The notes under the pieces: model-generated
The model's input: only the letters and a program-made list of their open reading frames with translations
Told to the model about the DNA's origin: nothing
The model's database searches: none
From: Bacteroidales bacterium
GTDB lineage: Bacteria > Bacteroidota > Bacteroidia > Bacteroidales > JAAYUG01
Assembly (NCBI GenBank): GCA_046329925.1
Contig: JAXLTS010000010.1
Location: forward strand, 51,836 to 115,835
Reading direction: 5' to 3'
DNA length: 64,000 bases
Shown: positions 36,735 through 62,342 of the stretch, piece after piece
How the letters are laid out: every line of letters begins with the position of its first letter
Numbering within the stretch: the first letter of the stretch is position 1
Made by a program: the position numbers and the translations under genes

Positions 36735-36809
36735 TGGGAACTGCTGGGTTCGAACCAGCGACCCCCTGCTTGTAAGGCAGGTGCTCTGAACCAGCTGAGC
36801 TAAGCTCCC
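36735..36809 (-). tRNA. tRNA-Val (anticodon TAC)
   Basis: I folded a 75-nt cloverleaf by hand. The acceptor is GGGAGCT/AGTTCCC, the D arm is GCTC...GAGC, and the anticodon stem is CCTGC/GCAGG with loop CTTACAA. The T arm is GCTGG-TTCGAAC-CCAGC. The discriminator is A and no CCA is encoded. Confidence 0.9.
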
Positions 36810-36832: not shown

Positions 36833-36863
36833 AAATATAGAGGTCTATTTCAATTCTGCAAAA
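36833..36863 (-). promoter_or_regulatory. Bacteroidota-type promoter of tRNA-Val(TAC)
   Basis: The minus strand reads TTTG (36860-36863), 19 nt, then TATATTTG (36833-36840). This matches the -33 TTTG / -7 TAnnTTTG consensus. The box ends 23 nt before the mature tRNA 5' end. Confidence 0.55.
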
Positions 36864-51090: not shown

Positions 51091-51122
51091 TTTGGTTTTA
51101 GTGTGATAATACCCTATCTTTC
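51091..51122 (+). promoter_or_regulatory. candidate Bacteroidota-type promoter of the PKD-to-CHAT operon
   Basis: TTTG (51091-51094), 20 nt, then TATCTTTC (51115-51122; the consensus is TAnnTTTG). It lies ~32 nt upstream of the ATG at 51154. Confidence 0.4.
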
Positions 51123-51153
51123 ATTTACCAATTCCTAACCTAAAACCAAGGCC

Positions 51154-51840
51154 ATGAAATCAAAATCCCTATTCCTGTGCACAGGGTTGTGTATTCTGTT
51201 TTTAGCAGCCTGTAGCAAAGATGAAGACAAACCTGCTCCAAAAGCCTCCTTCACGGTAAACGCCGATAACCCTGAGGCATTTGATACGGTATTCTTCACA
51301 AGCACATCCCAGAATGCCGTAAAATATGAGTGGGATTTCGGGGATGGGGCCACGAGCACCAGTCAGAATCCCATACATATTTATCAGAACACCGGGTCGG
51401 TGGAAGTAATGCTTAACGTCTGGAATGCTGAGAATGTATTGGCAAGTACAAGCAAAACACTCACCATTACAGACCCCACACTGCTGGAATTATACCTGAT
51501 CATGACAGGAACTACCGATCCTGTTGTTGACTGCCCTGTAATGCTTTTTACAAGTGAGGATGATATGTGGGCCGTTGAGAACCCTGTTGACGGAGACATG
51601 TCGGATGAGGATGGCTGGCTCATCTTCAAGGCAAAACCCATCGTTTATTATGTAATGGCTCTTAAAGAAGTGGAGGGTGGGTTCCTTACCAATATCAGCC
51701 TGGGATATCAAACCGATGTGCTTACGGCTCACGAATCGAATGCCTATAACCTGAATATGGAATTTATAGCCGATACCAAGGCCGGGAAGATTCGTGATGT
51801 ATATCAGAAAATGCTCAGCAGAAAGAATTCTACTCAATAA
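51154..51840 (+). CDS. PKD domain-containing lipoprotein
   Basis: 228 aa with the lipobox FLAAC. The PKD motif reads FTSTSQNAVKYEWDFGDGATSTSQNPIHIY. Confidence 0.8.
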   Translation: MKSKSLFLCTGLCILFLAACSKDEDKPAPKASFTVNADNPEAFDTVFFTSTSQNAVKYEWDFGDGATSTSQNPIHIYQNTGSVEVMLNVWNAENVLASTSKTLTITDPTLLELYLIMTGTTDPVVDCPVMLFTSEDDMWAVENPVDGDMSDEDGWLIFKAKPIVYYVMALKEVEGGFLTNISLGYQTDVLTAHESNAYNLNMEFIADTKAGKIRDVYQKMLSRKNSTQ

Positions 51841-51871
51841 GAATCAAATTCATTCAATAATCTACTCAGAC

Positions 51872-52846
51872 ATGATCCGCTTTTTGATTATTATGGCAGG
51901 TATATGCATGGCAGTTTATGCCTGTGATACCGAAGATGCCATTGAAGGTCCTTCGCAGGATACCTGGAAAACCTATACCAATGCAGGTTTGGGTGAATGT
52001 ACGGTGTATGCAATCACTCAGGACGCAGAAGGTACATTATGGGCCGGTACAGAGGGCAACGGAATTTATCAGTTCAAGAATGACAGCTGGAAGGTACTAA
52101 AGGCCTCCTCTTCCACCTTTCTCGATAATTCCATCTATTGCATCGCACAAGATCCTGCAGGCAATATATATGTCGGCAGCAGCAAGGGAATTTCCAGGTT
52201 TGACGGATCAACATGGACCAGGCAGCTTATCAGTTCTCCAGTAATTTCCGGATGCTATTATCTTCCCACAAAAGAGATGGTATTTGGTACGGCAGGTACC
52301 GGATTTGTGCTCTATTCAAACAATGAATATGGTGAATGGGCTTTCAACGATACTGAAATGAATTACATCAATGCCATCTATGCCGATTCAAAAGCCTGGC
52401 TTTGGTTTGGCACCCAAAATGGGCTTATGCGCATGTCTGCTCTGTACAAATTCACAAAATTTACAACGGCAAATGGATTGGCGGCAAATTATGTATATAG
52501 TTTTTTTGAAGACAGGAATAACCGGCTGTGGATTGGTTTCTGGGGTGGAAAAAAAATACAATGGGTCGAAAATGGCTATTTCCATGATATTCAACTTATG
52601 AGCGGTTTTGACAATAACTACATCCTTTCCTTTGCGGATGATATGTTCGGAAACCTCTGGTTCGGAGCTATCTCCAGTGGAGCTTTCAAATACAACGGAA
52701 GTATCATGGAACCCTTTGGAATAAACGACGGGCTATGCGACAACACCATTGTTTCTGTTTTCCGGGACAAGGATAATACCCTCTGGTTTGGTGGACTTGA
52801 AGGAGGAATTAGCCGGTTAAAACAGGCTGTACCAATAAACAAATAG
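51872..52846 (+). CDS. beta-propeller (two-component regulator propeller-like) lipoprotein
   Basis: The start is set at MIRFLIIMAGICMAVYAC (lipobox). Repeated motifs are LWAGTEGNGIY, IYVGSSKGISRF, LWFGTQNGL, LWIGFWGG, LWFGAISSGAF and LWFGGLEGGISR. Confidence 0.75.
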   Translation: MIRFLIIMAGICMAVYACDTEDAIEGPSQDTWKTYTNAGLGECTVYAITQDAEGTLWAGTEGNGIYQFKNDSWKVLKASSSTFLDNSIYCIAQDPAGNIYVGSSKGISRFDGSTWTRQLISSPVISGCYYLPTKEMVFGTAGTGFVLYSNNEYGEWAFNDTEMNYINAIYADSKAWLWFGTQNGLMRMSALYKFTKFTTANGLAANYVYSFFEDRNNRLWIGFWGGKKIQWVENGYFHDIQLMSGFDNNYILSFADDMFGNLWFGAISSGAFKYNGSIMEPFGINDGLCDNTIVSVFRDKDNTLWFGGLEGGISRLKQAVPINK

Positions 52847-52855
52847 GAGGAAGAT

Positions 52856-53935
52856 ATGAGAAAAATATACATCTTTCATCTGCTGTTATTGCTGGGAGGT
52901 ATCTCAGCGCAGGCACAGTATTCGCCAAAGATTGACGGTTCAACCAACTCCCTCCTGCTCTCCGAAACAAGGATAGATCGCCCCCTGCTCATGCATAAGA
53001 ATCAATTTCAATTGAATGGCGGCTATAAATTCGCTGTTAATTCCGGTGGTTTTAATAATGAAGGGGAAATGAAAAACTATCAGAAAATGGGTCTGGCTTC
53101 ATCGGAGAACCTGTTTAGCTTGTCGGGACACTATGGGCTAACGGATTTTCTTGAATTCAATTTTGGATTAAATTACAGAAGTACCGTTCAGCGAAAAAAT
53201 GACCTGCTGATTGCATGGCCTACTACCGTTCCGGATCTTATCCATATCACCTCAGTAACCGAATTGAATGCACTTAAAGGATTTGAAGACCTGGACCTTG
53301 GACTCGGGCTGAAACCCTGGACCCGGAATACCCCTTTTGAGATTGCGTTCAGATTCGGGGCAAGCCTGCCAACCGCTTCTTCTGAAAATCCGCAACCCCA
53401 GCATAAAGCCAATATTCCTGACACCCTGACCACACTACTGGAATATAAATATCCCGGCCGGTTTGGCAAAGGCATGCCTTTTCTGAAGTTCGGGATGGAT
53501 GCCAAATTACGCTTGTCTTCAGTATCATTTACCATGGTAGCCGATGCATCAAGGGGATTGGGGGAATCGGTATACACCGATTGGCAAGCCCAGCTATCAG
53601 GCAGCAGTTTTACCTATTCCCGTAAAGATATCCCTGTCCGGTATGCTGATTATTATGGAGTAATGGCATTATTCGATGTGCGGGTATTCAGCTGGTTCGA
53701 TGTATATGGAGGTTATCGCTTTCAATTTTCCACCGGAGGGTGGAAGGAATTTGACGGGGTGAAATTTGCCCTCCCTGAAACAAGTTCTTCCACTGCGGTT
53801 CTGGGTTTCGAAATTCTCACCACCACTCATCTCCGGATTCTGGAACACGCGGAACTTTCACTCGCCGGAAAAAATACCGATGTCCAGACCGGAATTTACA
53901 CCTCATTCAGTTACAACATCTTCACCCGTAAGTAG
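52856..53935 (+). CDS. hypothetical outer-membrane beta-barrel protein
   Basis: 359 aa with a signal peptide (LLLLLGGISAQAQ) and an alternating-strand pattern. No family is recognised. Confidence 0.6.
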   Translation: MRKIYIFHLLLLLGGISAQAQYSPKIDGSTNSLLLSETRIDRPLLMHKNQFQLNGGYKFAVNSGGFNNEGEMKNYQKMGLASSENLFSLSGHYGLTDFLEFNFGLNYRSTVQRKNDLLIAWPTTVPDLIHITSVTELNALKGFEDLDLGLGLKPWTRNTPFEIAFRFGASLPTASSENPQPQHKANIPDTLTTLLEYKYPGRFGKGMPFLKFGMDAKLRLSSVSFTMVADASRGLGESVYTDWQAQLSGSSFTYSRKDIPVRYADYYGVMALFDVRVFSWFDVYGGYRFQFSTGGWKEFDGVKFALPETSSSTAVLGFEILTTTHLRILEHAELSLAGKNTDVQTGIYTSFSYNIFTRK

Positions 53936-53941
53936 CCAGTT

Positions 53942-54910
53942 ATGAAAAGATTGTATTTATTATTCCTTTCCCTGGGACTTGTTCAGTTAAGCTCTGCCCA
54001 AACTGAAAAGCAATACCTGCCTTCAGAATTGAAGCAGAAAACGGTGATAATGGAACCGCCCACTTTGTATAAGGGTTTCTTCAAGGCAGGCCTCACGTAT
54101 TCCTGGACAAGCGTTAGTTCCTGGTTTGATGCCGATGGTAAAAAGAATCCCGTTCCCGGAAGCGGATACTACGCCACCCGAAGCCTCTCGGCTGATTTTC
54201 GTTATGGAATCACCGATCAGATAACGGTACACCTGGGAGTTCCCTATATGTTTATGCACATGTACCAGTCAGTTGAACAACGCCTGAATATGAGTGATCA
54301 GGTATTTCTGAAAAATTGGGACCGGAAAGGATATGGACTTGGGGATGTCGATTTAGGCGCCGATTTCCAGCTTATTACCGAAACGGAGAACAAGCCGGCT
54401 ATCACACTTAAGACTTTTGTGATGTTTCCTACCGGGGAGAAAAACCCAACAGACAGCATCAGTCAGTATGAATTCAAAGAACCCACGGGAGGGGGAGAAT
54501 ACAGCGTGATGGGAATCCTGCAAACCAGAAAAGTAGTTTATCCATGGTATCTGGACCTTTCCCTGTATTACACTCATTACCTCGGCGGGGAAAAAATGCA
54601 GGCCCTTGGTGAACCTGAAACAGGATTCAAAAACGGGGATCTCAGCCAGGTTGCAGCAACGATTGGATACCAGGTAAACGACTGGATCTGCCTTAATAAC
54701 ATGGTTTCTTTCAATTTGAAAAATCCGAGTGAATATGACGATCCCAACTATGCTTACCTGGAATATAAATCTCGCTCACTGGAGTATTATTTCTACTTGT
54801 ATTTTCAGATCAAACGCCTCAGGTTGGTGCAATCTGTTTATGTTCCTATCCGCGGACAAAGCTGGGGAGCCGATCCAGGATATTTTATCATGATGAGTTA
54901 TGCATTCTAG
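53942..54910 (+). CDS. putative outer-membrane beta-barrel transporter-like protein
   Basis: 322 aa with a signal peptide (LFLSLGLVQLSSAQ). The strand pattern and the C-terminal ...MMSYAF (terminal Phe) are typical of OMPs. Any similarity to MetA/phenol-degradation-type barrels is a guess. Confidence 0.6.
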   Translation: MKRLYLLFLSLGLVQLSSAQTEKQYLPSELKQKTVIMEPPTLYKGFFKAGLTYSWTSVSSWFDADGKKNPVPGSGYYATRSLSADFRYGITDQITVHLGVPYMFMHMYQSVEQRLNMSDQVFLKNWDRKGYGLGDVDLGADFQLITETENKPAITLKTFVMFPTGEKNPTDSISQYEFKEPTGGGEYSVMGILQTRKVVYPWYLDLSLYYTHYLGGEKMQALGEPETGFKNGDLSQVAATIGYQVNDWICLNNMVSFNLKNPSEYDDPNYAYLEYKSRSLEYYFYLYFQIKRLRLVQSVYVPIRGQSWGADPGYFIMMSYAF

Positions 54911-57704
54911 AATTTTCCCGGGAGTCTGGCTCCTGGCTATAGGTACGCTCTGCCTGGTTTCCTGCCAGACAGCCTCCAACCTCGTAACACAGGAACAACA
55001 GGCTGGGGATGCGAAAAACAATGCGGGAGAATTTCAGCAGGCCATCGATCACTACCAGAAGTCCCTGGAGGCAAGCATGAAACTCGGGGTGTATCGGAAT
55101 ACCGAAATGGAAGCACAGGTATGCCGCAAAGTTTCACAAGCCTACCAGACATTGGGGAAATATAAGGATGCCATGGTATTTATCGGGTATGCTTCCACCC
55201 TCGATTCAATAAATAAAAATCCGCTCAGGCTGATAAACGATCAGCGGGAAAAAGGACGCATCCTGCTTATGCAGGGAGATCTGCTTAAAGGCATAGATGA
55301 GTTGAATAAATCTCTTGTCATGTCCGCCGGCCTCGAGTCGAGCCTGAAAGATCAGAACCGACTTGTGAATGCCGAAGTTCAGCTGGCACTGGCTCATGCA
55401 TACCTCGTTGTAGGCCGGATAGAAGAAGCCAGAAGTTTTGCCCTCGGAGCACAGGAAATATATACCGCTGCCAACCGGCTGGAAGGTCAGGCTGAATGCC
55501 AGCTACTGCTTGGGAGTATCATGAGCGACAAGGGAGCTGTCGGTCGCGCTGCACAACATCTGGAACAATCGATACAGGTGGCTGAACGCGCAGGATTGAA
55601 CACTGCCCGCCAATATAAGGCTTTAAGTGAAAACCTGCTCCTGATGGGAGAATATGAGAAAGCTCTCCGGTATGCGATCAGGTCGAAAAACAAAGCGGAT
55701 TCCGCAGGTATCAAACCCCAGCAGGTATGGGCCCAGGTAGGCATTGGCGATGTATACCGGTTGATGGGAGATGAAGAAAAGGCCACTGAGATCTATTATC
55801 AGGCCCTGGAACTCACTGGCGATGGGCTCGAATCCAACCGGGCCATGAAGGCTTCTGTGGACTGGCGCCTGGGCAATGTTTTGGAGGCAAAAGAATACTT
55901 CGGCTCACAGGAATCGAGGCTCGCACTGGCACTTACGCTTTTAAGAATAGGAGACATTTATCTTAAACAGGAACAGACCGACAGCGCTCTGAATAATTTC
56001 CGGGAAGCATATATTGCCTTTGAAAAGGCTGCTTCAAAGGAAGGGATGGTCCGTTCAGGACTTTTCATGACCCGCACCTTCCTTGATGGAGGCCAAAACC
56101 AGAACGCAGCAGAAACGCTCGATGAGGCTGCAAAAGAAAATAAAAACCCCGATCTGAATTGGATGATCTATTATCTTCAGGGCCGTTATTTTGAGAACAC
56201 AGGAGAAAAAGATCGTGCTGCAGAAGCTTATCGGAAATCAATAGAGGAAATTGAGAATTTCCGATCCCGATTTTCCACTGATGAGCTGAAAAGTTCTTAC
56301 ATGAACAATAAAATGGAAGTTTACGACAGGCTCATCCGGCTGCTGATGGAACAGGGAGATAAACTGGAGGCCCTGCGATATGCAGAAAGGGGAAAAGCAA
56401 GGGCATTTCTTGATTTACTCGGTAATAAAAAAGTCGGATTGAAAAATAACAAACCCAGTCCGCTTATCGAGAAAGAACAAGCCCTGTCCTCACAAATACT
56501 TCTTCTGAAAAAACAATATAACAAGAGTTTATTTGATGATGAATCCGTTGAAGAAAATCGTGCCAGCAGAGCCGTTATCGGAGAAGAACTCACCAGGGCA
56601 CAGGAACAGTATACCCAACTGCTTCTCGAGATAAAATTAAATGACCCTGCATACCATTCACTGGTAAGTGTGGAGCCTGCCAATATCGAATCCATACAGG
56701 AAACCATTGATAACTCGGAAGTACTTTTGGAATACTGGACCGGTGCCGGTAATACTACCCTCTGGCTTATCCGGAAAAATGATGTGCAGGCTATCACCCT
56801 TCCAAAAACCGCAACAGAAGTGAACCGGTACGTGGAGAATTACCGCGATGCAATCCAGTCCATTTCCCTTACAACAACCTCCCTGGCAAAACGGGGCTTT
56901 GAATGGTTGTTGAAGCCGGTTGCTCCCCTTATTAAGAAGAATGAGGTGATAGGTATCATACCCCATGGAGCGCTGCACCTCCTCCCCTTTCAGGCACTAA
57001 TGAATGAGGATGGAAAATACCTGGCAGAGACAAATATTCTCTTCTATGCTCCTTCCGCTTCAGTATATTACGAAAATAAAAAGAAGGCTCCGGTGAAAGG
57101 AGATAACCTGCTGGCAATGGGGCTTGGAAAAATAAACATCGGAATTTTCCCCGGTTTGCCAGGAACTCAAAGAGAAGTGGAGGGAATAAGTAATATCTGG
57201 CCCGGCATTAAAATAGCTATGGAGAAAGAGAGCACGGAGGGATTACTGAAAGCATCCGCCTCCGGCTACCAGTACCTGCACCTGGCTACTCACGGATATT
57301 TCAATGAGAACCAGCCTACCTATTCCTTTCTTCTGTTTTCTCCGACTGAGGAAGAAGACGGTCAACTAACAGTTAACGAAGTGTTCGGACTGTCACTGAA
57401 CACACGTATTGTAACCATGAGCGCTTGTCAGACCGGCCTGGGTAAGATTAATGCAGGTGATGAACTCGTGGGACTGAGCAGGGCCTTTCTTTATGCCGGC
57501 AGTCGCTCGGTACTTGCCAGTCTATGGAATGTAGCTGACGAGTCTACTGCTGTTCTGATGACAGATTTTTACACCTACCTTCGGTCGTTCAACCAACAGG
57601 AAGCCCTCACCATGGCTGAACGTCAGTTAATGAAACGCTGGCCGGCACCTTATTACTGGGCCCCGTTCCAGATTATCGGGAATGAGGTACCATTTGAAAA
57701 ATAA
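54900..57704 (+). CDS. TPR repeat-containing CHAT domain lipoprotein (caspase-fold protease)
   Basis: 934 aa with the lipobox CLVSC. About 600 aa are TPR-like helical repeats. The C-terminal CHAT motifs are IIPHGALHLLPF, YLHLATHGYF (His codon 57291-57293) and VTMSACQTG (Cys codon 57426-57428). It overlaps the upstream gene by 11 nt. Confidence 0.85.
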   Translation: MHSRIFPGVWLLAIGTLCLVSCQTASNLVTQEQQAGDAKNNAGEFQQAIDHYQKSLEASMKLGVYRNTEMEAQVCRKVSQAYQTLGKYKDAMVFIGYASTLDSINKNPLRLINDQREKGRILLMQGDLLKGIDELNKSLVMSAGLESSLKDQNRLVNAEVQLALAHAYLVVGRIEEARSFALGAQEIYTAANRLEGQAECQLLLGSIMSDKGAVGRAAQHLEQSIQVAERAGLNTARQYKALSENLLLMGEYEKALRYAIRSKNKADSAGIKPQQVWAQVGIGDVYRLMGDEEKATEIYYQALELTGDGLESNRAMKASVDWRLGNVLEAKEYFGSQESRLALALTLLRIGDIYLKQEQTDSALNNFREAYIAFEKAASKEGMVRSGLFMTRTFLDGGQNQNAAETLDEAAKENKNPDLNWMIYYLQGRYFENTGEKDRAAEAYRKSIEEIENFRSRFSTDELKSSYMNNKMEVYDRLIRLLMEQGDKLEALRYAERGKARAFLDLLGNKKVGLKNNKPSPLIEKEQALSSQILLLKKQYNKSLFDDESVEENRASRAVIGEELTRAQEQYTQLLLEIKLNDPAYHSLVSVEPANIESIQETIDNSEVLLEYWTGAGNTTLWLIRKNDVQAITLPKTATEVNRYVENYRDAIQSISLTTTSLAKRGFEWLLKPVAPLIKKNEVIGIIPHGALHLLPFQALMNEDGKYLAETNILFYAPSASVYYENKKKAPVKGDNLLAMGLGKINIGIFPGLPGTQREVEGISNIWPGIKIAMEKESTEGLLKASASGYQYLHLATHGYFNENQPTYSFLLFSPTEEEDGQLTVNEVFGLSLNTRIVTMSACQTGLGKINAGDELVGLSRAFLYAGSRSVLASLWNVADESTAVLMTDFYTYLRSFNQQEALTMAERQLMKRWPAPYYWAPFQIIGNEVPFEK

Positions 57705-57729
57705 AGGGTGTTTTCGAATAAAATTTTCT

Positions 57730-58104
57730 ACCACAGAGGACAGAAGGTATATCACTCCGCGTGCCGCCGTGCGCCTCCACTGAAGTTTTCGCATCCGCTA
57801 AAGCTACTGCGAACGCGGACAGCGCAAGCCTAAGCTCCAGCGGAGGAGCAAAGGGTTTCACAAAGATGCAGACACTTTGCGATCAGGAAGGTTAAATTCC
57901 CATTATCCGGGCTTAATGATTTTTCGCCTCTTCAGAGGTAAACATCCGCGAAATTCTTACAACATCTGAATACTCAAATTACTTGAATAATAAGGCTGGT
58001 GCCATGAAAATCCGAGTGAATTATCGCCGGCGATCTGCAAATAAATACTAATCCGCACTGACTTCGTGAATCCCTCCGTGATATCCTCTGTGATCCTTTG
58101 TGGT
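57730..58104. repeat. MITE-like non-coding element bounded by imperfect ~26-nt inverted repeats
   Basis: The left end is ACCACAGAGGACAGAAGGTATATCAC (57730-57755). The reverse complement of the right end (58078-58104) is ACCACAAAGGATCACAGAGGATATCAC. The interior has no credible ORF. Confidence 0.5.
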
Positions 58105-58261
58105 TGTCCTTTTTATCCGCCTGGTATAACCGATCTCCATCAAGAAAACGTAAGAGTTAATCCCTGTCTGAATTGCTGGTTGCAAAGCAAATTATTTGCC
58201 TGAATTACAATAAAGTTATTCAAACTTAAGTTTATCTGTGAAAACCAATTAAATCCCGGTC

Positions 58262-58944: not shown

Positions 58945-61524
58945 TTATAATCCATTATCAATCACTACCGTTGCATCCTGATCCGGGCTGGTAACAGGGT
59001 AAACGAGGGCATCACCGGTGATGTCGACTTCAATATGGTATTCAAAATCCTTGTTCCCGTATTCTTCCGGGCTGAGCACAAGTTGCCATACTCCGCGTGA
59101 GGTTTTCACCAACGCCCTTTCCTTGTATTGATCTTTCCCCAGTTTTCTCCAATAAAGCACAGGAACAGAATTTTCATCCACACCCAGCAACATTATTTTC
59201 AAGCGAAAGGGCTCACCTGCCGATAACAGGCTTCGCCTTACAGGAACGATAATTCTCGGATCTCCACGGTAAGCCTTCTCCATAGCCGGCAGAGTTTGCA
59301 CTTCTCCCATGAGGGAATCGATAGCCTGATCATACTTCGTTAAAAGTTTCATCTGGCCCAGGTTGTGCATCTCAAGATTTGCAATCGTGCCCATCTCTCC
59401 GCTGGTACCTGCAATGGACAGCAGAAGATCCATCGTATGTCCCCATATTGTATAAATGCTGTCACGCAGAGGCAGTATATTTTCCCTGATTAATTGCCTC
59501 TGATCTTCCAGGGCAGCTTCTTTCCCGAGCAGGGTAACCTGTCGGTCAATACTACCCAGCAGACATCCCATCTGAGCCAGGCTTCTCGCATAACGAAAGG
59601 TATTAAGCCAGTAACTATATCGTTCCCTGGCTCCGGCCCCTGTGATTCTTTCGCTGAGATCTTCAAAATCATCTACAAAGGCAAACTGCGGGCTTACCGA
59701 TTCCCAGGACCGGTAATCCGGTTTCACCCCTCCGGGACCCGTCATTGCCCAATCGGAGGTGCGTGGGAGGTTGGACACCCGTTGGTTTTTACCGGGGATA
59801 AAAAGTGGTCCCCCGTCAATAGTGGAAAAGATAGCGGCAATCTTATCCGCCACTTCGACCCCGAAATTTGCTCTGGCAAAGTCGAGATAAAAGGCGGAGG
59901 TGTTCAGGTCGCGGTCAGTTGGCTGTAAGGTAGTATCCAACTGGTGAGCATGCCAGCCCGCATATTCCAGGGCGCCAAAGGCAGGGGCCAGATTCTGGGT
60001 ACGCCAGTGAATGCCCATCATTCCGGTACAACCGTACCGCATGGCATCCCATGCATCGCGCAGCACCCTTCCGGCCCAGAGCTGCGGTGAAATAAGTCCC
60101 GGGTCGTCCTCCAGCCAGCTGATCTGCCATTTCTCCCTGCCCTTTATATCAGCAAAGCCAGGTTCCACCGGTGAAAATCCAACTTCGCGGTTAATGCAAC
60201 TAAATGGGATATCCTTTGGCAGTATCCTGTCGAATGCAGCCCTGTCGTTGGGAGGACCCAGCACCCATCCGCAGGTTGCCAGATTAAAAGGTGCTTTGGT
60301 ACGGTAGGCTGCTTCCATCGCCAGCATCATATCTTTTTCGGTGGCTTTAACCTGTTTGGCATCTGCTCCACTCCAGGTCCAGTTCTCCGGGGTCCACATC
60401 CAATAATAATCGAGGGGATGAAGTTTTCGTATTCGTGTAAATATTCCTTCATACACTAACCTGGTTGCCTCCGCAGAAGCAGGATCTATTCCCATGGTCC
60501 TTAGCTGGTCCTTCACCAGGGCAGGGATGACAAGAGGAGTCTCCGTGCCTATGCAGGTTTTCACCCCCAGGCGTTGAGCAAGTGTGAACACTTCTTTCTG
60601 CCAGCTTCCGAATTCATTAAACACGGCAATGTTTGCTTCGGGGCTGTGCGGCCAACTCCCCGCGCCTCTCATATAGCCGGCTCCATAATCATCCTCTTCA
60701 AATAGCTGCGATGCCCCATACGAGAAGTCTGATGTTTTCTTCCTGAAATATCCCCAGCTGCTGTCACCGGTATGTGAATGCATCACCGGGTAGGCTGTTT
60801 TTACAGTACCATCCTCATTTATGTTTTCCTTCAACCCGATCCAGACCATGGGTTCTGCCCGCGACCAGCCACCAAATTCACTTTCAGGATAAGTATGAAA
60901 TCCGATGAAGTTCATGCGCATCCTCGCCAGTTGGGTAACCACCGATTTATATTCATCAAGGCTCCACCAGTCGGGCCCCTCCGGAAAATCATGGAAGGGT
61001 TGTATTCCACGCATGGAAAAAGCTGGTGTCTCCATCATCGAAACGGAATCGATGATCACGCTGTACTGCAGGTCGGGAATTACATCTCCATGCGGATAGA
61101 AGCGCACTCCCAGACTTTCGATGTACCGGTATACCGCATAAAAAACAGCCTGGTCGGAACCGCCGGTGAGGAGCAGGAAGGTCTTTCCATTTTTATCAAA
61201 GGATCGAATCAAAAGCGATTGCGGTGTTAATTGCATATCTGACTTGTTTATGCTTTCGGGAACAAGAGAACCCAGTACCGTATCCCCGGGAAAACAAATC
61301 AGGTAGCCTCCCTTATCCACCTGGCTAATAGTTTTTATGTCCTTGATTGGGAGCAGCCTGCCCGATACAAGATAGATATAACGGCGTAACTCCTTTGCTG
61401 CCAGTTGCTGGTTAACCGATGTGCCGGCTGAAATATAGATTTCATTATCCTGTGTGTAGGTGCAGGACGCCATCAACAGGCCAAGCAGACAGAAATATAA
61501 TAGTGATCGGACATAGGATCGCAT
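58945..61524 (-). CDS. putative exported glycoside hydrolase, family unassigned
   Basis: The start is set at Met38 (MRSYVRSLLYFCLLGLLMASC, lipobox). The N-terminal domain carries an AAKELRRYIYLVSG-type motif seen in GH20b/GH67N-like folds. A TIM-barrel-like middle follows (FSMRGIQPFHDFPEGPDWW...NFIGFHTYPE). The function call is weak. Confidence 0.45.
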   Translation of the reverse strand: MRSYVRSLLYFCLLGLLMASCTYTQDNEIYISAGTSVNQQLAAKELRRYIYLVSGRLLPIKDIKTISQVDKGGYLICFPGDTVLGSLVPESINKSDMQLTPQSLLIRSFDKNGKTFLLLTGGSDQAVFYAVYRYIESLGVRFYPHGDVIPDLQYSVIIDSVSMMETPAFSMRGIQPFHDFPEGPDWWSLDEYKSVVTQLARMRMNFIGFHTYPESEFGGWSRAEPMVWIGLKENINEDGTVKTAYPVMHSHTGDSSWGYFRKKTSDFSYGASQLFEEDDYGAGYMRGAGSWPHSPEANIAVFNEFGSWQKEVFTLAQRLGVKTCIGTETPLVIPALVKDQLRTMGIDPASAEATRLVYEGIFTRIRKLHPLDYYWMWTPENWTWSGADAKQVKATEKDMMLAMEAAYRTKAPFNLATCGWVLGPPNDRAAFDRILPKDIPFSCINREVGFSPVEPGFADIKGREKWQISWLEDDPGLISPQLWAGRVLRDAWDAMRYGCTGMMGIHWRTQNLAPAFGALEYAGWHAHQLDTTLQPTDRDLNTSAFYLDFARANFGVEVADKIAAIFSTIDGGPLFIPGKNQRVSNLPRTSDWAMTGPGGVKPDYRSWESVSPQFAFVDDFEDLSERITGAGARERYSYWLNTFRYARSLAQMGCLLGSIDRQVTLLGKEAALEDQRQLIRENILPLRDSIYTIWGHTMDLLLSIAGTSGEMGTIANLEMHNLGQMKLLTKYDQAIDSLMGEVQTLPAMEKAYRGDPRIIVPVRRSLLSAGEPFRLKIMLLGVDENSVPVLYWRKLGKDQYKERALVKTSRGVWQLVLSPEEYGNKDFEYHIEVDITGDALVYPVTSPDQDATVVIDNGL

Positions 61525-61634
61525 GGTGTGGAAGTTTAAGAATCGTGTATAAAGATAATGAGTGAGCGGAAGAATACAAAACACAAGGGGAGAAACGGCG
61601 TGACCGTTTCTCCCCTTTAAAATTTCATCAGGCA

Positions 61635-62342
61635 CTATTTTACTTCTGCCTTCTCCAGAAGAACTTCAAAGAAGTACCCTGAACCGAGATCCTTATCGAG
61701 CACAATGGTTCCCCGCAGGCTCACCTCGTCTCCCAGATTGAGAAATGCATCGGAGGTAACGGTAAGGTCGGTGGGTTTGCCGTCTTTTGTACCATCTGTG
61801 ATATGATACCAGTTGGTTCCAAGAATACCCGAGTTCGCCTTGGTAATCTTTCCCTTTACAATCACCTGTTTGCCTTTCAGTTCATTCTTCTTTGCAATGA
61901 CATCACTGATGGACATGGTCCCTTCGGGAACTGCCCCGGTGGTACTCTCTTTTGGAGCAGTTGCGGGAACACTTCCTGCTTCTGCACCACTTTCCCCGGG
62001 AGAACTGAACACGGAAGGATCAGCACTTATCCGGTCAATAAACAAAATGGATTCAAAGGTGCGTTTCAGATCCTTGCTCTCGAAGTTCTTCATCTCAAAA
62101 CCTGTGGCAAAATAAAGAACATCTCCTTCCTTCACATCCATATGTGTAACAGCAAGCCATTGATCTTTTCCGTCTTTATCCGCATTCAGATAAGTATACC
62201 TTTCCGTTTGAATAACTTCCTTCACGGTTACCTTCTGAAGTCCTTCAGCAGCGGGATTTTCCTTTTTACCTCCGCTACATGAAAAAAGGGTAACAGTCAA
62301 AATGACCAGGAAGATTGCCTTTGTTTTTCTCAAATATTTCAT
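61635..62342 (-). CDS. hypothetical lipoprotein (possible OB-fold C-terminal half)
   Basis: 235 aa with the lipobox LFSC. The C-terminal segment GKQVIVKGKITKANSGILGTNWYHITDG resembles OB-fold binders. It lies immediately downstream of ccsA. Confidence 0.55.
   Translation of the reverse strand: MKYLRKTKAIFLVILTVTLFSCSGGKKENPAAEGLQKVTVKEVIQTERYTYLNADKDGKDQWLAVTHMDVKEGDVLYFATGFEMKNFESKDLKRTFESILFIDRISADPSVFSSPGESGAEAGSVPATAPKESTTGAVPEGTMSISDVIAKKNELKGKQVIVKGKITKANSGILGTNWYHITDGTKDGKPTDLTVTSDAFLNLGDEVSLRGTIVLDKDLGSGYFFEVLLEKAEVK

Follow-up and report, generated by a model that had tools for sequence, protein, structure and literature searches.

The Fap system of Pseudomonas combines the outer-membrane channel FapF with the periplasmic cysteine protease FapD, whose active-site Cys is needed for secretion through FapF; cleavage by FapD of the substrate or of the linker and plug of FapF has been proposed (PMC5557850). 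FapF and the COG4313 channels are 12-stranded plugged barrels with a common PTG motif (PMC5557850). Caspase-fold TPR-CHAT proteins such as separase and craspase are cytoplasmic enzymes with tightly switched activity, and the sole studied periplasmic case is DdvA, whose trigger and substrate are not established. DdvA is paired with an extracytoplasmic function (ECF) sigma factor and contains, besides a transmembrane helix, a zinc-binding anti-sigma domain in the cytoplasm; His862 and Cys907 form its catalytic dyad (PMC11506125). Here we analyse five co-linear genes, named g1 to g5, in a 64,000-nucleotide (nt) stretch of a Bacteroidales bacterium (GenBank assembly GCA_046329925.1, contig JAXLTS010000010.1, positions 51,836 to 115,835, forward strand), hereafter the window. 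Four of them, g2 to g5, are a real, conserved and self-contained four-gene envelope module, which encodes a propeller lipoprotein, two beta-barrels (A and B) and a TPR-CHAT lipoprotein. This four-gene set, present in at least 72 species of uncultured Bacteroidota, appears to be undescribed. Our literature searches found no paper on the combination of propeller, FapF-like barrels and TPR-CHAT, and none treating FapF together with CHAT, or TPR-CHAT together with a lipoprotein. No entry for the set is present in Pfam, NCBIfam or PADLOC.

The five genes are open reading frames (ORFs) that abut on the + strand over 51154-57704, with an export signal on every product. The ORF of g2 opens at GTG 51794, and its signal peptide MIRFLIIMAGICMAVYAC begins at ATG 51872. 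With the start taken as 51872, the intergenic gaps from g1 to g4 are 31, 9 and 6 nt, and g4 and g5 overlap by 11 nt. This layout reproduces that of a first-pass annotation made from the DNA sequence alone, which had also seen a signal peptide on every product and three lipobox Cys residues; all five proteins do begin with a signal peptide, and the lipoboxes are FLAAC (g1 Cys20), AVYAC (g2 Cys18) and LVSC (g5 Cys22). The annotation described a five-gene operon. The five genes indeed abut on one strand, but the conserved unit comprises four genes, g2 to g5.

The distribution of this unit was determined by a genome scan over one genome per GTDB species with a pattern from the barrel B alignment; the barrel A alignment has no stretch conserved enough for such a pattern and was not usable. 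The scan gave 72 loci, and their ORFs were compared with the five proteins of the window. Essentially all loci with enough contig (72 GTDB species) have propeller, barrel A, barrel B and TPR-CHAT in this order, as abutting genes of a single strand. Metagenome contigs with homologs of barrel A or B show the identical four-gene order, again abutting, while their flanks differ. The explanation that the genes are unrelated neighbours, or a five-gene operon with an essential PKD protein, would fit the abutting g1 to g5 in the window and at its closest relative, locus L085. It has next to no probability, since the fixed gene order in 72 species with varying flanks excludes chance adjacency and about 84 of 88 loci have no PKD gene. 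When the flanking ORFs of 84 loci are clustered, no fifth conserved partner emerges, and no regulator, cargo or defence gene.

All 72 carrier loci belong to metagenome-assembled genomes (MAGs) of uncultured Bacteroidota, including Bacteroidales, Rikenellaceae, Cyclobacteriaceae, Flammeovirgaceae, Roseivirgaceae, Ohtaekwangia and Imperialibacter, and the names of some carriers point to peat, fen, lake-sediment and spring samples. An exhaustive hidden Markov model (HMM) search of 1.84 billion cluster representatives finds 88 barrel clusters at E ≤1e-30, followed by a gap and then by longer FapF-like proteins and barrel A paralogs. Sampled members of the 88 clusters are metagenomic and are unannotated or called "hypothetical". 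A word-indexed search with barrel A finds only 8 relatives, a number that reflects the sensitivity limit of this search and not true rarity. The four families occur together well outside close relatives, with pairwise protease identity down to 30% across the ortholog set. Median identity to the window is 28% for the propeller, 28% for barrel A, 32% for barrel B and 37% for the protease. A metagenome scan with the remote ortholog P0032 finds only distant paralogs without barrels. At the remote locus L086 (1-10674, GC 70.7%) a TPR-CHAT gene abuts an incomplete barrel B-like gene (HMM E 6e-17), so the pairing extends beyond Bacteroidales and Cytophagales; the next genes encode a CHASE2-CHAT protein and a BrxC/PglY-like protein.

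A comparison with L085 shows that the propeller (68% identity) and barrel A (58%) diverge fastest, while barrel B (84%) and the protease (86%) are better conserved. These rates fit an outward-facing variable pair, propeller and barrel A, and a conserved inner pair, barrel B and protease. The pairwise distances of the four proteins correlate at 0.80-0.94, showing that they diverge in step. Partial distance correlations ("mirror-tree") give a hint of a chain from propeller via barrel A to protease, a weak one, as the pairs are not independent. Variation in copy number is also found. At L027, L044 and L056 the triplet of propeller, barrel A and barrel B is doubled before a single TPR-CHAT gene (e.g. 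L027 4546-7637 and 7896-10966). L063 (7908-10984) contains the triplet without a TPR-CHAT gene, between genes for an amino-acid permease and RsmF as at complete loci, and its MAG holds a complete cassette elsewhere, at L021. At least three further MAGs have two cassette loci each, both complete.

The last gene of the cassette, g5, encodes a TPR-CHAT cysteine protease that keeps its catalytic dyad and is predicted to be active. Its match to Pfam CHAT (PF12770) has an E-value of 2.6e-63 and 214.6 bits against a cut-off of 24, covering 8-289 of the 289 model positions, and many TPR families of Pfam match as well. The motifs HLATHG (His798) and MSACQTG (Cys843) are present. Of 68 orthologs, all have His798 and 98.5% have Cys843, and neither residue varies in 41 broader TPR-CHAT proteins. 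Full-length TPR-CHAT queries against PDB sequences were swamped by generic TPR matches, and only a query restricted to the CHAT domain gave a usable alignment to DdvA and Csx29. His798 and Cys843 align with His862 and Cys907 of DdvA. The first-pass annotation of g5 as a lipoprotein TPR-CHAT with an intact His/Cys dyad is thus borne out, with both residues in catalytic columns. The AlphaFold2 model of g5 has a predicted local distance difference test score (pLDDT) of 89 and a predicted TM-score (pTM) of 0.86, and its fold matches Csx29 (8EEY, E 6e-19), DdvA (8ROT, E 2e-15) and separase (E about 1e-14).

The lipobox Cys is kept in 64 of 67 distinct ortholog N-termini of g5, which predicts a location in the envelope and not in the cytoplasm, as the annotation had proposed. 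The Bacteroidota surface-export signal has been experimentally defined as C-X-K-(D/E)2, or SDDDD / SDDFE (PMC5080379). The g5 N-terminus does not fit this signal (64 orthologs): the segment after the Cys has the consensus x-T-P-S-I-x-V-T-x-E-Q, and none of the orthologs has an acidic residue at +2 to +7. As the surface-export signal is missing, g5 is placed on the periplasmic face, and it should face the periplasm. In the model the first helix begins at residue 25, three residues past Cys22, and with such a very short tether the TPR array would be held close to the membrane. The annotation had described CHAT as best characterised in cytoplasmic contexts. A periplasmic TPR-CHAT precedent exists in DdvA (PMC11506125). 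The envelope location of a TPR-CHAT protein is by itself not new, as signal peptides or lipoboxes are likewise seen at the N-terminus of several more distant TPR-CHAT paralogs of other organisms (P0034, P0036, P0056 and others). There may be a broad, largely unstudied class of exported TPR-CHAT proteases. No barrels adjoin the paralogous genes of P0034 and P0038, and the link to barrels is therefore specific to the ortholog group of g5.

Barrels A and B, the products of g3 and g4, are full-length paralogs of each other and belong to the FapF/COG4313 superfamily. No family match to g3 is found in Pfam and NCBIfam; g4 matches Phenol_MetA_deg (PF13557) below threshold (20.2 bits, cut-off 22), and some barrel orthologs carry precomputed PF13557 matches. 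The NCBIfam FapF equivalog model gives g4 only 19.9 bits against a cut-off of 700, so the barrels are superfamily relatives and not FapF orthologs. A profile of 14 barrel B homologs aligns with the FapF structures 5O67/5O65 over about 190 residues (E 3.4e-11, 46 bits), and in this alignment the FapF PTG motif coincides with PTG-x-KNP, which is invariant in barrel B. The same profile reaches only 12 bits against the COG4313 channel 4RL8. Alignment of barrel A with barrel B by hhalign covers 314 columns (probability 99.3%, E 2e-20). The AlphaFold2 model of barrel A (pLDDT 80, pTM 0.73) matches FapF 5O65 (E 2e-10) with a TM-score normalised to the target (TMt) of 0.63-0.68, and 4RL8 with a TMt of 0.70-0.72, while porins, FadL and autotransporters score far below these two. 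The annotation had predicted two beta-barrel outer-membrane proteins; they are barrels, but a paralogous FapF/COG4313-type pair and not generic ones. The secretion barrels which the annotation named as frequent neighbours of cyanobacterial CHAT genes belong to another family, namely two-partner secretion (Omp85-type). The signal peptidase I sites of g3 and g4 expose a Gln which is invariant, or nearly so, among homologs, and this agrees with the Q-rule of Bacteroidetes (PMC5837995).

The barrel type and the gene layout raise the possibility of nutrient uptake, in which the surface propeller would hand a substrate to import channels of the COG4313 type, comparable to SusD/SusC or BtuG/BtuB, and the periplasmic protease would trim imported peptides or proteins. 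The genes for surface lipoprotein and barrel are usually adjacent in Bacteroidota uptake systems, and the cassette has this layout. COG4313 channels are described as importers, 4RL8 is among the top fold matches, and some genomes hold several paralogous cassettes. At 32 loci (e.g. L001 5970-7448 and L053 4665-6185) an amino-acid permease is encoded about 120 nt before the propeller gene and on its strand, and RsmF is encoded downstream of the cassette in 25 loci. However, these loci form one clade with mutual protease identity of at least 50%. The flanks are therefore inherited synteny and not a general link; the permease is absent from the window and from the other clades. In addition, bulk protein degradation is not a known role of TPR-CHAT enzymes, the cassette comes with neither a regulator nor TonB-dependent energy coupling, and barrel B is nearer in sequence to the exporter FapF than to 4RL8. 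We consider uptake unlikely.

The propeller protein g2 matches Reg_prop in Pfam (E 8e-30), with no other domain in its 324 residues. Its best solved relative is 4A2L (BT4663; E 1e-28), the periplasmic ligand-sensing propeller of Bacteroides hybrid two-component systems. The lipobox Cys is present in all 62 distinct ortholog N-termini. It is followed by the consensus C-E-[KR]-T-[DE]-Y-[DE]-L-L (CDTEDA in the window), with K/R at +3 in 43/62 and two or more acidic residues in 52/62. The g2 N-terminus is similar to the surface-export signal in a non-canonical form. On account of this acidic, export-signal-like N-terminus, g2 is placed on the surface, where the propeller is probably located.

The match of g2 to the PorZ structure 5M11 is weaker (E 2e-6). 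It raises the question of a sortase-like attachment complex comparable to PorU/PorV/PorQ/PorZ, in which a clan CD peptidase would act as transpeptidase, the propeller would present the acceptor glycolipid and the barrels would serve as anchors. That complex consists of PorU, PorV, PorQ and PorZ, and PorV has a FadL-like fold. The parts lists agree, each with two barrels, a Reg_prop propeller and a caspase-fold cysteine peptidase, and g2 also matches the NCBIfam PorZ model (E 1e-10). But this match of 40.5 bits is far under the 260-bit cut-off and is confined to a Reg_prop blade stretch of about 80 residues. Both barrels fall into the FapF/COG4313 type, with much lower scores for FadL-type structures, and g5 is a CHAT protein without surface-export signal and not a gingipain-like C25 peptidase. 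Pfam and NCBIfam scans find no type IX secretion C-terminal-domain family on g1 to g5. Such an attachment complex is very unlikely.

The remaining gene, g1, encodes a PKD lipoprotein (Pfam PKD_4, E 2e-13). The first-pass annotation counted it as a component of the module, which does not hold. Of about 88 loci, only the window, L085, L015 and L020 have a PKD homolog immediately before g2, and the gene is missing even in relatives with 52-64% protease identity. Because of this restriction to four loci, g1 is an accessory of few lineages and not core. Its Cys20 context, CSKDED, is a full match to the surface-export signal C-X-K-(D/E)2, from which we infer a location on the cell surface.

How could these proteins work together? 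The identification of the barrels as FapF/COG4313 type provides a concrete precedent, FapF with its periplasmic protease FapD. We tentatively favour, at somewhat under an even chance, a protease-coupled polypeptide conduit, in which the TPR-CHAT protein would process or gate a polypeptide crossing the FapF-like barrels. The products of g2 to g5 would form one complex spanning the outer membrane, with the propeller outside, the barrels in the membrane and the TPR-CHAT protein at the periplasmic mouth. The TPR array would capture an unfolded polypeptide, or a segment of barrel or propeller, the CHAT domain would cut the captured segment, and the cut would permit or gate passage through the barrels. 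The annotation had suggested an envelope-resident sensing, proteolysis or secretion module. The co-linear exported set ending in a TPR-CHAT lipoprotein stands, and its composition is corrected to a four-gene core with FapF-type barrels. Several observations weigh against the conduit. Whereas fap operons encode FapB, FapC and FapE, neither the cassette nor its surroundings contain a conserved cargo gene, which leaves the propeller itself or the product of a gene elsewhere as cargo. The cassette barrels are without the N-terminal periplasmic coiled coil of FapF, and the protease clans differ (CHAT in g5, C39 in FapD). COG4313 relatives are described as importers (PMC5557850), so that transport could run in either direction. 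The predicted topology of the cassette proteins is read from sequence motifs only, and the propeller N-termini match the export-signal consensus imperfectly, with an adjacent acidic pair after the Cys in only 21/62. Furthermore, the known TPR-CHAT proteins (separase, craspase, DdvA) are specific signalling proteases and fit sensing at least as well.

Alternatively, the cassette could be an envelope sensor or alarm. An external or periplasmic ligand, such as a glycan or a phage or competitor component, would be detected by the propeller, alone or together with the barrels, and this would switch on the TPR-CHAT protein to cut one specific target in the periplasm. The result could be a signal, a remodelled envelope or a defence response, in line with what has been proposed for the periplasmic TPR-CHAT part of DdvA. 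Several findings are consistent with this. Among solved structures, g2 is closest to ligand-sensing propellers; g5 has the fold of DdvA, which is proposed to sense a periplasmic signal and to cut in response (PMC11506125); and known TPR-CHAT proteases are allosterically switched and site-specific. The fast divergence of propeller and barrel A together with the MAGs holding two cassettes is typical of receptors under diversifying pressure, and the remote L086 adjoins the CHASE2-CHAT and BrxC/PglY-like genes. On the other hand, the conserved neighbours include no kinase, sigma factor, anti-sigma factor or other output gene, PADLOC gives no defence-system match, and the largest clade is flanked by housekeeping genes (amino-acid permease and RsmF) and not by defence islands. 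The sensor would also leave the need for two FapF-type channels unexplained. It is possible but somewhat improbable in our view.

Whether as a polypeptide conduit, which we prefer, or as a sensor, the cassette would be a new kind of outer-membrane device for Bacteroidota. It may be doubted, though it is worth stating, that it is a new outer-membrane machine in full, in which the two FapF-like barrels form a hetero-oligomer with a variable propeller cap outside and a tethered caspase-like protease inside, and which moves polypeptides or passes a surface signal inward via proteolysis; this would make it a new system and not a variant of Fap or DdvA. We infer the function from the parts and their conservation, the carriers being uncultured. 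The cassette is a second envelope context for TPR-CHAT proteins and recurs across many species with fixed partners, so that the search for substrate and trigger can concentrate on three proteins. It also ties the protease to FapF-type channels in a second phylum and bears on why FapF secretion needs a periplasmic protease, which is still unexplained in Fap.

The coordinates of all features are given in Table 1.

Table 1. Features of the g1 to g5 locus, in positions of the window (aa, amino acids)
Feature	Position	Strand	Description
Promoter-like box TTTG-N20-TATCTTTC	51091-51122	+	32 nt 5' of the g1 ATG
g1	51154-51840	+	228-aa PKD lipoprotein, Cys20 then SKDED; accessory
g2	51872-52846	+	324-aa Reg_prop beta-propeller lipoprotein, Cys18 then DTEDAIEG; core gene 1
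g3	52856-53935	+	Barrel A, 359 aa, signal peptidase I signal with cut between AQA and Q21; core gene 2
g4	53942-54910	+	Barrel B, 322 aa, signal peptidase I signal with cut between SSA and Q20; core gene 3
g4 PTG-x-KNP motif	from 54428-54436 onward	+	Invariant; C-terminal Y-A-F also in g4
g5	54900-57704	+	934-aa TPR-CHAT lipoprotein; core gene 4
g5 lipobox Cys22 codon	54963-54965	+	Then short non-acidic segment QTASNLVTQEQ
g5 CHAT domain, residues 667-928	56898-57683	+	Pfam coordinates
g5 His798 codon	57291-57293	+	Codon position verified
g5 Cys843 codon	57426-57428	+	Codon position verified

The promoter-like box named in the annotation is present, but without statistical support. The pattern TTTG-N18-21-TAnnTTT occurs 5 times in the window with 4.7 occurrences expected, and at this chance frequency the box carries no weight alone. 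Its position upstream of g1 is plausible and its function putative. Scans of the window for sigma-70-like promoters and terminators give matches at chance level only. One of the five window matches to the Bacteroidota-type promoter pattern, at 36833-36862 (-), lies just upstream of a tRNA gene (36735-36809, -), and an Rfam scan of the window finds two distant tRNAs only.

After g5 there is a gap of 557 nt (57705-58261) with no Rfam match. It contains an imperfect inverted repeat, with ACCACAGAGGACAGAAGGTATATCAC near 57729 and its complement near 58077-58104. A segment of 85 nt at 58019-58103 has 76% identity to L085 6598-6681, and 28 nt have 96% identity to L074 15282-15309; the repeat may be a small dispersed one. 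The adjoining ORF at 58945-61635 (-), of 896 aa, has no Pfam match and is not conserved with the cassette. It has an internal Met followed by a lipoprotein-like signal, LLGLLMASC-TYTQDNE, and would encode a large putative lipoprotein.

A comparison of the cassette with Fap shows that its barrels are homologous to FapF by sequence and fold. The Fap operon also pairs a channel with a Sec-exported His/Cys cysteine protease, and the activity of FapD is needed for secretion. The other parts differ. FapA-, FapB-, FapC- and FapE-like genes and an amyloid-repeat substrate are not found in the cassette, and no further gene is conserved in or beside it at 84 loci. Fap uses one homotrimeric FapF, whereas the cassette has two paralogous barrels. 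In the barrel B profile, the match to the FapF barrel domain begins near residue 75, and the barrel A model contains only short helices before the barrel; FapF-like matches with a long N-terminal extension have 400-560 aa, in contrast to the 322 and 359 aa of the cassette barrels. FapD is a soluble C39 peptidase, while the cassette protease is a lipid-anchored TPR-CHAT protein of caspase fold and, by Pfam, the only protease in the five genes, with no C39-type FapD among them. The cassette adds a propeller lipoprotein that Fap is without, and its hosts are Bacteroidota and not Pseudomonadota as for Fap. The COG4313 / Phenol_MetA_deg channels (Pput2725, 4RL8) have the barrel fold and the PTG motif in common with the cassette barrels, but they are stand-alone importers of small hydrophobic molecules and are not paired with a protease and a propeller.

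The propeller g2 has the same Reg_prop blades as the hybrid two-component sensors (4A2L) and PorZ (5M11). It is a single, lipid-anchored propeller, with no kinase, receiver or DNA-binding domain, no second propeller and no type IX secretion C-terminal domain. A search of the window proteins against PADLOC-DB gives only weak matches, to a generic TPR model for g5 (E 2.8e-5) and to UzuA for g2 (E 0.004), and a reading as a defence system was dropped as no PADLOC system matches. The failure to map the module to any described system, noted in the first-pass annotation, agrees with our literature and PADLOC searches. Fap, craspase, a DdvA-type anti-sigma factor, the type IX attachment complex, a hybrid two-component sensor and catalogued defence were each compared with the cassette, which is none of them, as it fails at least one tested defining feature of each.

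On the protease side, Csx29 of craspase and separase are the best overall fold matches of g5 and have the TPR-plus-CHAT architecture in common with it. They are cytoplasmic or nuclear proteins, whereas g5 has a lipoprotein signal peptide. The NCBIfam Csx29 model gives g5 52.3 bits with a cut-off of 300, and Cas7-11/Csx30 or cas genes are found neither in the window flanks nor conserved at the other loci. DdvA is a TPR-CHAT protein outside the cytoplasm with a conserved dyad, as is g5, and the two agree in fold (E 2e-15) and in the alignment of their dyads. But g5 is a lipoprotein without an anti-sigma domain, with the TPR helices directly after the signal peptide. No sigma factor gene is conserved near g5; its orthologs are instead always found beside two barrels and a propeller.

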